A stretch of DNA of 53,069 bases, taken from positions 1-53,069 of the forward strand of contig JACQRW010000016.1 in NCBI GenBank assembly GCA_016206285.1, in the 5' to 3' direction. Source of the stretch: Candidatus Sungiibacteriota bacterium (GTDB taxonomy: Bacteria > Patescibacteriota > Minisyncoccia > Sungbacterales > HO2-52-23). Position 1 is the stretch's first letter, and each line of letters begins with the position of its first letter. Shown here piece after piece: positions 30,801-33,800 of the stretch. Position numbers: made by a program.

Positions 30801-33800
30801 TTGATTTTCTTGAAAAGGCTGCAAAGCTATTTAAGGAACGCACCGGCCAGTATCCAAAAACGCTCGATGAACTGGTAACGCAAAAAATTCTCAAAGCCAT
30901 CCCGTCCGACCCGCTTGGACTTCCCTACGACACCAAAGGCGACGGCAAAGTGTTTTCAAAATTTGAGCAATAGAATACGTTCATAGAAATAAACGAGCCA
31001 CAAAGAATTGTGGCTCTAGTTTTTAATTTTATGGTGCGGCGCGTGGCGCGCGATCCAGAATCCAAAAGGCATCTGAAAAACAAATTCACGGATAAGGGCG
31101 CTCCTTGCCCACTTGCCGGCGGTGGTCTGGTCTGTAATCAGATGATCCGGCTGAAATTCGAACTCGAAAGGAATGCAATCAACAAATATTTTTGCCTGAG
31201 GAAACAACTTTGCATACAAGTTATAAAAACTTCGTGAGTGTGTGTCCCCTGTTATTCCAAGAATACCCTTTACTGCCCATACTATACTGGCCAGTACCTT
31301 GTCTCCTTCGTCAATGGTGCTGTCTATGCTGCGGACCCATATGACTTTTTGTTCGGGAAATTTCAGATCATCCAAGAGATATCGCTTCAATTGCCACTCA
31401 AGCGCTTCGCCTGTGTAGCTGCACGTAGTTACAATAAGAGAAGCATTTGGAAAGTGTGTAGTTTGCCACCAGATGCCGAGCCTGATGCTGTGTTGTGACA
31501 TCTCCGGAAGGCGATCTTTACACATTCCATACGAGGGAACAATAATTGCATCAACGGGTCCCCTGCTGATTTCATATGTTGAACTTTGTATTCTCCAGAT
31601 TTGCCGGAATGGCCGCATATGTTACCCCTCTATACTATTTGAATGTTAAAAAACAGTAGTAAAAAAGTACTACCTTTTAGTGGATGTGTCAATTTTCATG
31701 AATACTACAAATCGCTCCGGCATGAGTTGCCGATGCGCACGTGAAATTCTTCGCTTGGGATAGCGTGATTGTGGAATGATTCGTATCCCATGTCGAATCT
31801 CGGATCAATGATAATAAATTTGCCGGGCGGAATCGGATCATACTGTCCGCCGTAGTTTCCTTTCAATGCTTTTTCATGCGGGCTTAAGCGGATCACGAGC
31901 GGATCCGCGCTTTCGTTTTTGATCTGAATAACGCATCCGGTATTTTTTTCATTTTGTTCAAGTGTAACGGTTATCGGGTCAAAATGATGGTCGCGATACA
32001 GTATAGTCGGAAGTGTAAGATTCTCCGGCGGCATGGCCTGTGTTTCGGTACCTTGAACATCCACTGTGGGTTTTGCCGGAGAAGCCGGAAGCTCTGGTTT
32101 TTGCTTTCCTTCGCGTATCAAGGTAAAAAAGCGCAATCCAAGGAAAATAAGAATGGCAAAACATGCCAAAAGCATGATGGCTCGCATTATATTATGGCGG
32201 AAAATCGTGTTCATATAGAATCAGTATATCAGATTCTAGATAAACCAAAAACCGTCCCTATATGTCGGACGGTTTTTGATGCGGTATGCATTGCGGGGGC
32301 CGGAATTGCACCGGCGTCTCAAGGTTCTTCTTGTACCTTTTCTTTCAAAAAGGAATGGACTATACCATCTTCCATCTTATTGTGGGTAGATAATGGAAGC
32401 TCCCATTGTAGTCTCTGAACCTTCCTTAACAAAATTCATTGTTAGGGCTTGGATGCTGATTGCCAAATCTCCTCTTTTTTTGCGCGTTCGCGGCCATCCT
32501 TTCGGATCACGCTGTAGCAAGAGAAGCTCTTATGGGTTTCCAGCAGTTTCGGGAGTTTTTCCGCGGCATGTTGCCATACCGGGTCACAGAATACTCTATG
32601 AGCCTCGCGAGGTACTTCTCCTCTACCCCGCCCAGAAAATCTTGTCGTGGAATTCTCTGGGCGAGAGACGAGCATACCATCGCTAACTCAGCTTACCCTA
32701 CACCTTGTTTATAAAAATAGCAACGCCATGCCTAATACTAGTTCACGATCGTGGATAAAGTATTGAATGCAAAAACAGTGTTTTACTTTATTGAAATTGC
32801 AGATTATCCGGGGCGTCTCCGGGGATTGGGGTATCCGGGGACAGATCGGTGATAAAGCCCAGATCGCGGAAGGCAGCGCGATAGCTGTTGACGGCGCTTA
32901 TGATGGTTTCGCGGTTGTGCTGGTCCGTGGGGTCGTGCGCGATGGCATTGCGGAGCCGATGGCTGGACCACACGCGATCAAGCGAGGGGAGCTGGTTCGG
33001 ATCAGCCACTTTCAGACGGTCCGCCATGGTAGCGCCGGCATAGCCGACATTTTTGAGCGTGTTATCGAGCAGGGCGTCCGCCTGAAGAATCGCCATATTC
33101 CAGTCCGATTGGCTCTGGCTTTCAATAAGCCGTTCGATATTTTTCCAGCTTAACTGTATTTCAGCTGCCGGGTTTACTGGCGCTACGGGGGCAGCCGTGT
33201 GCGGCTTGCTGCTTACCAGTTCAGAATAGCGGCGTATGGTAAATGCGATAAACCCGACGAGCAGGGCATCAAGCAAAATAAAAAGAATCATCAGCAATAA
33301 TGGGAATGCTCCAAGGTGCCATGATTGCAGCCATCCCAGAAACTGGCCGTAGAGGTTCGGGACAAAGCGCAAGAGAGAAGACAGAAGCGCAAGAAAAATG
33401 AGAAGCCCCATGACGGCGGTCATGATTTCTACGGCATGGTGTTCAAGCGGTTTTGTCTCTCCCATATTTGTCTATAAAAAAAATTAAGGCTGAAGTGTTT
33501 CGATCATCTTTCCCACGGTAAAAAGTTGGTTTTCATGGAAACGGGGCGCAATCAGCTGAAGCCCTACGGGAAGTTTGGCATTGCCCCGCATGACAAATCC
33601 GGCCGGGATGGAAATGCCGGGAAGGCCGGCGAGATTGACCGCAACCGTATAGATATCGGCCAGATACATTTTGAGCGGATCATCTTTTTTCTCTCCGCAC
33701 ATGAACGCAGGAGTCGGGGTGGTCGGTCCTATGAGCACGTCCACTTTCGCGAATGCGTCTGAAAAATCTTTGCTGATGAGCCGGCGTACCTGTTGCGCTT

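Follow-up and report, generated by a model that had tools for sequence, protein, structure and literature searches.

In the genome of a Candidatus Sungiibacteriota bacterium (GTDB lineage Bacteria; Patescibacteriota; Minisyncoccia; Sungbacterales; HO2-52-23), a tRNA gene with the anticodon CAU is interrupted by a group I intron of 271 nucleotides (nt). The gene lies on the minus strand of contig JACQRW010000016.1 (assembly GCA_016206285.1). Positions 1 to 53,069 of this contig were analyzed and are referred to here as the window. We consider it very likely that this is the single initiator tRNA gene (tRNA-fMet) of the genome, split between U36 and A37 by a group I ribozyme intron that lacks an open reading frame (ORF) and is removed by self-splicing. 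The core of the intron is like that of short bacterial tRNA introns, to which an extension of P5 resembling P5abc is added. The window intron is not a new kind of element, and an ORF-less group I intron at position 36/37 of the initiator tRNA is a setting common in Patescibacteria.

The Split Gene and Its Splice Junction

The Rfam group I intron model (Intron_gpI, RF00028) matches window positions 32336-32607 on the minus strand with 70.2 bits, compared with a gathering score of 50 (E 7.5e-16), and the match spans the full model (positions 1-253). When run with its intron search, ARAGORN places a tRNA-Met(CAU) gene at c[32291,32632] and, behind tRNA position 36, an intron of 271 nt, i(36,271). 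This is to the base the span that had been proposed in a first-pass annotation, which was made from the sequence alone and read an initiator-type tRNA as split at 36/37 by a complete group I intron. The tRNA(CAU) gene runs from 32632 to 32291 and is divided between U36 and A37, with the intron at 32597..32327, as follows:

32598..32632, minus strand: 5′ exon, initiator tRNA(CAU) positions 1-36 (ARAGORN intron search)
32327..32597, minus strand: ORF-less group I intron (RF00028, ARAGORN i(36,271), same-genus BLAST breakpoints, covariation)
32291..32326, minus strand: 3′ exon, tRNA positions 37-73 (ARAGORN intron search, intronless orthologue)

The 5′ exon contains G1 (mismatched with A72), U8, a D stem GAGG/CCUC with A11:U24, and the anticodon CAU at 32600-32598. 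The 3′ exon provides the 3′ strand of the anticodon stem (CCUUG), a 4-nt variable region, a T-arm with the loop UGCAAUU, the acceptor strand CCCCGCA and the discriminator A, and it is without an encoded CCA. Neither default ARAGORN nor the Rfam tRNA model detects the split gene at this locus, and the earlier suspicion that standard annotation could miss it is borne out. No ORF is confined to the 271-nt intron; the overlapping ORFs extend into an exon or the flank. The ORF search likewise gave no homing-endonuclease gene in the intron, which leaves no room for one, in agreement with the first reading. In the genome-wide Rfam search, which covered a 754-kb assembly of 24 contigs that is 91% complete, the window intron is the sole group I match.

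The exact junction is established at the DNA level, independent of any intron model. The two exons abut at the syntenic locus in all three same-genus genomes among 100 sampled relatives. One of these genes (L016:1507-1577) is 71 nt long, equals the two exons of the window joined letter for letter, and scores 51.8 bits as a tRNA. The predicted junction GGCTCATAACCTTG is found in it verbatim. The uninterrupted same-genus genes match the 5′ exon with 100% identity in their 5′ half. In the same-genus loci the flanks are syntenic with those of the window, and the BLAST alignments break at 32326/32597. Because these uninterrupted genes sit at the syntenic locus, the junction is fixed to the base.

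In two groundwater metagenome runs, DNA contigs likewise bridge a gap of exactly 271 nt, with flanking sides of only 18 and 28 letters. Since these sides are short and the community is mixed, the contigs probably represent intronless relatives rather than alleles of the window organism. Exon depth far exceeds flank depth in the groundwater contigs, and therefore the initiator exons of many co-occurring relatives would be nearly identical, whether or not the intron is present. Exons that abut, with the 271 nt missing (32325/32597), were seen in groundwater metagenomes that also contain this genome.

Structure and Covariation of the Intron

A minimum free energy (MFE) fold computed from the window sequence only reproduces P1-P6, P8 and P9. 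Its z-score is -3.26, and none of 200 shuffled sequences folds as well. P7 was read from the sequence. It forms a pseudoknot with P3 and would constitute the guanosine-binding helix. The elements of the intron are listed below:

32584..32601, minus strand: P1 hairpin, UCAUAGA (32601-32595) pairing with UCUGUGA (32590-32584), loop GUAU
32561..32583, minus strand: P2, with GNRA tetraloop GCAA at 32574-32571 (MFE fold)
32551..32555, minus strand: P3 5′ strand CUCCC, pairing with 32404-32400
32454..32545, minus strand: P4-P5 domain (MFE fold, covariation)
32545-32540 / 32459-32454, minus strand: P4
32535-32533 / 32465-32463, minus strand: P5
32526-32519 / 32476-32469, minus strand: P5a, 8 bp
32510-32493, minus strand: P5b hairpin, GAAA loop at 32503-32500
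32481-32477, minus strand: A-rich strand which, with a short third hairpin or junction, makes up the remaining parts of the P5 extension
32424..32447, minus strand: P6/P6a hairpin (MFE fold, RNAalifold)
32409..32413, minus strand: P7 5′ strand GACUA, pairing with UAGUC at 32362-32358 (read from sequence)
32400..32404, minus strand: P3 3′ strand GGGAG, pairing with the P3 5′ strand
32369..32399, minus strand: P8 hairpin (MFE fold, RNAalifold)
32358..32362, minus strand: P7 3′ strand UAGUC, pairing with the P7 5′ strand
32336..32353, minus strand: P9 hairpin, GAAA tetraloop at 32346-32343, followed by a 9-nt tail ending in omega-G

P1 is built from exon UCAU and intron AGA opposite UCUGUGA. In it, the anticodon CAU is paired to the internal guide GUG (32587-32585), just as the first-pass annotation had it, and U36 (32598) and G (32587) form the wobble at the splice site. 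The last base of the intron is a G (32327), the omega-G. GNRA loops are present on P2, P5b and P9, and a receptor-like internal loop is present in P5.

Covariation was assessed in an alignment of 27 of the 29 distinct homologous introns. The two left out (L006:1420-1785 and L013:1418-1790) are homologous introns with ~40 nt inserted in the loop of P1, after the 5′ splice site and before the guide. From the 27 homologues, RNAalifold predicts P1, P2, P3, P4, P5, P6, P8 and P9, and 32 of the 54 predicted pairs show compensatory (two-sided) changes. The compensated pairs fall in P2, P3, P5, P6, P8 and P9, plus one pair of P1, which is G:C in 16 homologues and A:U in 11. Seven pairs of P2 show compensatory changes, each in 9-13 of the 27 sequences, and the same is true of 4/5 pairs in P3 and 5/6 predicted pairs in P8. 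The P5abc-like extension of ~50 nt is carried by 16 of the 27 homologues including the window, and all 8 of the P5a pairs covary. The P5 extension with a GAAA-capped hairpin (32510-32493) that had been noticed in the single sequence is in this way supported by covariation. Conservation at the splice sites is strict. The splice-site U·G wobble is kept in every one of the 27 aligned homologues, and a U before the 5′ splice site and a G as the final intron base are found in 29/29 unique sequences. The P7 strands, the joining segments and the core blocks are invariant in 27/27 homologues, and all of these invariant core blocks are intact in the window copy. The covariation of the helices indicates selection for the ribozyme structure.

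The four classical tRNA intron types are assigned to subgroup IC3 (Williams, 2020, bioRxiv 10.1101/2020.01.27.920355). The Michel-Westhof pattern of IC3 has GNRA-looped P2 and P9 and no P5abc; the window intron shows P2 and P9 with GNRA loops and also the covarying P5a/P5b extension.

Identity of the Host tRNA

Several features of the joined exons point to an initiator. They carry a G1 x A72 mismatch, which cmscan flagged as non-standard, together with A11:U24, G30:C40 and G31:C39. In elongators, the D stem pair 11:24 has a pyrimidine at 11 and a purine at 24. Of 50 distinct genes of the same tRNA type with which the window gene was compared, 35 have a mismatch at 1:72, 14 a weak U:A or U·G pair there and 1 a C:G pair, and A11 is kept in 49. 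Homologues split at 36/37 elsewhere in the phylum (e.g., L160 and L183) have C1xA72 and three G:C pairs in the anticodon stem. Over 100% of its length, the orthologue without an intron from the same genus can be aligned with tRNA-Met genes of E. coli; the median is 4 matching places per genome, and the one inspected lies between argG and rimP. We take the E. coli gene between argG and rimP to be metY, an initiator gene. The genome also encodes fmt (297.7 bits) and def, the gene for peptide deformylase (162.2 bits), side by side.

A separate tRNA with the anticodon CAU is present in the window:

28462..28535, minus strand: other tRNA(CAU), elongator type, with G1:C72 paired and C11:G24 (ARAGORN, Rfam tRNA model)

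No match to TIGR02432, the model for TilS, was obtained in the 91%-complete genome. A tRNA-Ile(UAU) gene is located at G000:C16:29539-29610 on the minus strand. Because there is no TilS match and tRNA-Ile(UAU) is present, a tRNA-Ile2(CAU) is not expected, and AUA is probably read without lysidine in this genome. With the 1:72 mismatch, A11:U24, the missing TilS match and the separate elongator-type CAU tRNA, the joined exons are classified neither as Ile2 nor as elongator Met, and the initiator type named in the first-pass annotation is upheld.

The split gene is the only initiator gene found. For CAU, ARAGORN and the Rfam tRNA model give one other tRNA in the assembly, which is of the elongator type, and no second initiator. 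In a BLAST search of the assembly neither exon has a second copy, and an initiator anticodon arm without interruption is also not present. Because no other initiator gene was found, there is good ground to infer, for the assembled 91% of the genome, that translation initiation would depend on splicing. The first-pass annotation had attached this dependence to the gene being the only initiator. The uniqueness stands for the assembled part. Should there be no other copy, an RNA-catalysed splicing step would be needed for all translation starts of the organism.

Both CAU tRNAs have unusual features. The elbow of the initiator tRNA has a 7-nt D-loop with a single G and the T-loop UGCAAUU, in which G replaces the usual U55. 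This elbow is conserved across the family (L003-L031), and other members of the phylum have ordinary loops. The elongator-type tRNA-Met at 28462-28535 has an odd T-loop (AUCGUUC), which recurs in relatives, and the lowest pair of its anticodon stem is a mismatch, A31 x C39.

Distribution of the Intron

A sample of 100 genomes of relatives was searched with the pre-tRNA of the window. Near-full-length matches that include the intron are found in 13 of them (E 3.1e-21 or better). One more genome (G068) has a diverged intron at the same site, as called by Rfam and ARAGORN, which brings the relatives with an intron at 36/37 to at least 14 of the 100. The exons abut in 17 relatives, and in two others they lie 212-215 nt apart around an unrelated insert. 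No match at all to the window pre-tRNA was obtained in 52 of the 100. The closest relative of the window gene comes from another genus (G016, 84% identity over tRNA and intron), and the congeners are without the intron (3/3). This patchy presence among close relatives fits a mobile element or one that was recently gained or lost, by transfer or recombination. In one of the two relatives with an unrelated insert, a genome of the same family (G013; L024:1501-1784), the same initiator tRNA is split at 33/34, the classical cyanobacterial site, by a different group I intron of 213 nt (RF00028, 71.3 bits). A single bacterial family accordingly has two intron types, 33/34 and 36/37, in this tRNA.

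When 185,579 species genomes were scanned with a strict pattern, 45 stretches were obtained; ARAGORN confirmed 25 of these and a motif script 10 more as initiator genes with a split at 36/37, which makes 35 in all. The 10 stretches that were not confirmed are L153, L156, L159, L162, L163, L172, L185, L191, L194 and L197; four of them are labelled non-Patescibacteria and may be chance. The strict pattern replaced an earlier 14-base pattern that was too loose and gave chance matches; ARAGORN found a split tRNA(CAU) in 0 of the 120 loci taken from its matches. In total, 36 distinct initiator genes split at 36/37 were collected, with introns of 187-300 nt; they were selected for this feature, and their count is not a prevalence. 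Nearly all carriers bear labels of the Patescibacteria type, namely Yanofskybacteria, Sungbacteria, Nomurabacteria, Giovannonibacteria, Paceibacterota, Parcubacteria, Patescibacteria group and 'Saccharibacteria'.

Group I introns occur widely in the phylum in other tRNAs as well. Among 151 evenly drawn genomes of the phylum, 62 have group I matches. The 29 best phylum loci (L198-L226) were assigned by ARAGORN to tRNA-Asn(GUU) (10), Thr(UGU) (4), Phe(GAA) (3), Met(CAU) (1) and a doubtful Leu (1), with 10 unplaced. In the same phylum sample, the tRNA-Asn(GUU) introns apparently follow the second anticodon base, and several introns are 500-600 nt long and may carry ORFs. A BLAST search with the intron alone against 400 evenly drawn phylum genomes gave one weak match besides its own genome; this search is too insensitive for diverged introns (it missed the one in G068) and provides no prevalence figure.

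The view in the first-pass annotation that an initiator-type host at 36/37 looks unusual is not supported, given at least 14 of 100 relatives with an intron at the site, 36 distinct genes, and group I matches in 62/151 phylum genomes. Of some residual interest are the small core of the tRNA type that bears a P5abc-like extension, the occurrence of both 33/34 and 36/37 introns in the same tRNA of one family, and the patchy presence among close relatives. The pattern of presence and absence, together with the two intron types in one family, is useful for studying the spread of ORF-less group I introns.

Proposed Splicing Pathway and Alternative Explanations

From the sequence and structure of the intron, its conservation, the junction at the DNA level and the identity features of the tRNA, we infer that the gene is transcribed, that the intron would splice itself out and that this reaction would be essential. 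The precursor would be transcribed from the minus strand. The guide GUG would pair with the anticodon CAU to form P1 with the U36·G wobble, and an exogenous guanosine nucleotide bound at P7 would attack after U36. The omega-G (32327) would come to occupy the same site, and the freed 3′-OH of U36 would attack after omega-G. The joining of exons ...GGCUCAU + AACCUUG... would restore the anticodon loop CUCAUAA. After processing and the addition of CCA, the spliced tRNA would be aminoacylated with Met and then formylated by the genome's own Fmt.

A number of observations weigh against this account. The run search found no RNA runs carrying the locus, and the four matching runs that were examined are DNA contigs. 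A P10 pairing with the 3′ exon is not evident in the window sequence. The outermost P4 pair of the window is a C x U mismatch, compared with U·G or C:G in most relatives. Since P7 is invariant, covariation neither supports nor opposes it. On the side of the host tRNA, A29:U41 leaves two, not three, consecutive G:C pairs in the anticodon stem at 29-31:39-41; among the 50 distinct genes of the same tRNA type, 29:41 is A:U in 42 and G:C in 8. Natural initiators with two G:C pairs are known, and the feature weakens but does not exclude the initiator call. Neither ARAGORN nor the Rfam tRNA model gives tRNAs for Asn, Tyr and Trp in the assembly. With a single group I match in the assembly, this gap is not accounted for by split genes of the usual kind that escaped detection. 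Because the assembly is 91% complete and consists of 24 contigs, a second initiator gene is possible in the missing part.

Some of these points could be read to mean that the window holds a gene copy in decay (its intron inactive, or the tRNA a pseudogene) and that the working initiator is encoded in the unassembled 9%. The incomplete assembly, its missing tRNAs for three amino acids, the mismatched terminal P4 pair and the want of an RNA run with the locus all lean in this direction. However, the exons are 100% identical to functional-looking uninterrupted genes of the same genus, the window copy retains every core block that does not vary in the 27 homologues, and the helices covary in a manner that indicates selection for structure. 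Moreover, the same split was collected in 36 distinct genes, and the congeners have their initiator gene at the syntenic locus. We therefore regard a decaying copy as very improbable. There is even less chance that the host is an elongator tRNA-Met or a lysidine-bearing tRNA-Ile2 like that of the classical 36/37 intron. The insertion site and the CAU/GUG P1 are those of Ile2.5Ug (Williams, 2020), and only two of the three anticodon-stem G:C pairs are present. Against such a host stand A11:U24 and the mismatch at 1:72, the location of the best E. coli matches (4 places per genome, of which the one checked lies between argG and rimP), the missing TilS match in the presence of tRNA-Ile(UAU), the separate elongator-type tRNA-Met at 28462-28535, and the same-site homologues L160 and L183 with three G:C pairs and C1xA72.

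It is also conceivable that the intron is real and that its removal in the cell is assisted by a protein, a cofactor or chaperone, rather than being autocatalytic. Many group I introns need the help of proteins in vivo, and this is the argument for assistance, as nothing in the analysis supports it directly. The P5abc-like extension can be taken either way, as a platform for a protein or as an element that stabilizes the ribozyme itself. Of the short bacterial tRNA introns, those assayed to date splice themselves in vitro. The window intron has stabilizers made of RNA only (the GNRA loops on P2, P5b and P9 and the receptor-like internal loop of P5), and no candidate cofactor gene lies beside the locus, so that protein-assisted removal appears unlikely. 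Removal by self-splicing is the explanation that we favor.

Why a self-splicing intron would be kept in this gene is a different matter. One idea is that it gates the supply of the only initiator tRNA and thereby ties the start of translation to the availability of guanosine and Mg2+. Maturation in a reduced-genome symbiont would in that case need a free guanosine nucleotide and a correctly folded ribozyme, and ribozyme folding would be tuned by the P5abc-like extension that one subgroup alone possesses. We think that such gating is quite improbable. With regard to origin, the 36/37 initiator introns may have arisen when an intron of the Ile2 type jumped between tRNAs with the loop CUCAUAA, through reverse splicing guided by three bases.

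Comparison with Known tRNA Introns

The four classical settings of tRNA introns are Leu.3Ug, Arg.5Ug, fMet.2Ug (33/34) and Ile2.5Ug (36/37), and 17 further settings are reported, with a high frequency in metagenomic assemblies of unnamed phyla (Williams, 2020). The contrast that the first-pass annotation drew between fMet introns at 33/34 and the Ile2 intron at 36/37 agrees with that work. In its notation, the window setting is likely 'fMet.5Ug'. Our literature search found no paper that describes an fMet 36/37 setting, and the readable text of Williams (2020) names the four classical settings only. According to a methods paper (PMC8172020), group I introns frequently conceal the tRNAs of such genomes. 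Group I introns in Patescibacteria tRNA genes are the subject of a preprint by Nakagawa et al. (2025), going by its title as cited in PMC12641178.

The closest counterparts of the window intron are the 35 further Patescibacteria introns at 36/37 of the initiator tRNA. They share with it the host tRNA, the site, the GUG guide, the core and the lack of an ORF. Nothing essential differs, and the window copy belongs to the subgroup with the ~50-nt P5 extension. The classical Ile2.5Ug intron, located in tRNA-Ile(CAU) and of the Azoarcus type, is likened to the window intron by setting and layout, not by sequence. Like the window intron, it is inserted at 36/37 of a CUCAUAA loop, has a CAU/GUG P1, is small and ORF-less and carries GNRA loops on P2 and P9, whereas the host of the window intron is an initiator and the window intron has a P5abc-like extension. 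The cyanobacterial fMet.2Ug intron of the Synechocystis type, some copies of which carry the I-Ssp6803I endonuclease, is likewise a group I intron in the anticodon loop of an initiator tRNA. It is inserted at 33/34, in contrast to 36/37 in the window; P1 and the guide differ accordingly, and the window intron is without a homing-endonuclease ORF. Other group I introns in Patescibacteria tRNAs are also compact and located in the anticodon loop, but their host tRNAs and insertion sites differ from those of the window.

These introns matter for annotation. Default tRNA finders make a genome such as this one appear to be without an initiator tRNA, which distorts completeness estimates and tRNA-set statistics of ultra-small bacteria. 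An intron-aware search recovers the split initiator gene.

Surroundings of the Locus

The genes next to the split tRNA are ordinary chromosomal genes and include an amidase (GatA-like), an NAD-dependent DNA ligase and ABC transporters. A prophage or mobile-island setting was considered and rejected on account of these housekeeping neighbours and the synteny of the locus with that of the congeners. The consensus scan found no promoter-like site upstream of the tRNA. It also listed no terminator within its loop limit of 8. A probable terminator was read directly from the sequence and would lie 3′ of the tRNA:

32250..32282, minus strand: probable terminator hairpin, CCGUCC / GGACGG with a 9-nt loop, followed by a U run

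This hairpin is unlisted by the consensus scan because its 9-nt loop exceeds the limit. Elsewhere in the assembly, three short tRNA-like genes of 72-73 nt were noted (G000:C14:22931-23003, C23:14103-14175 and C24:21275-21347; 33-41 bits). They are called Ser(CGA/UGA) by ARAGORN, yet they are without the long variable arm of tRNA-Ser.

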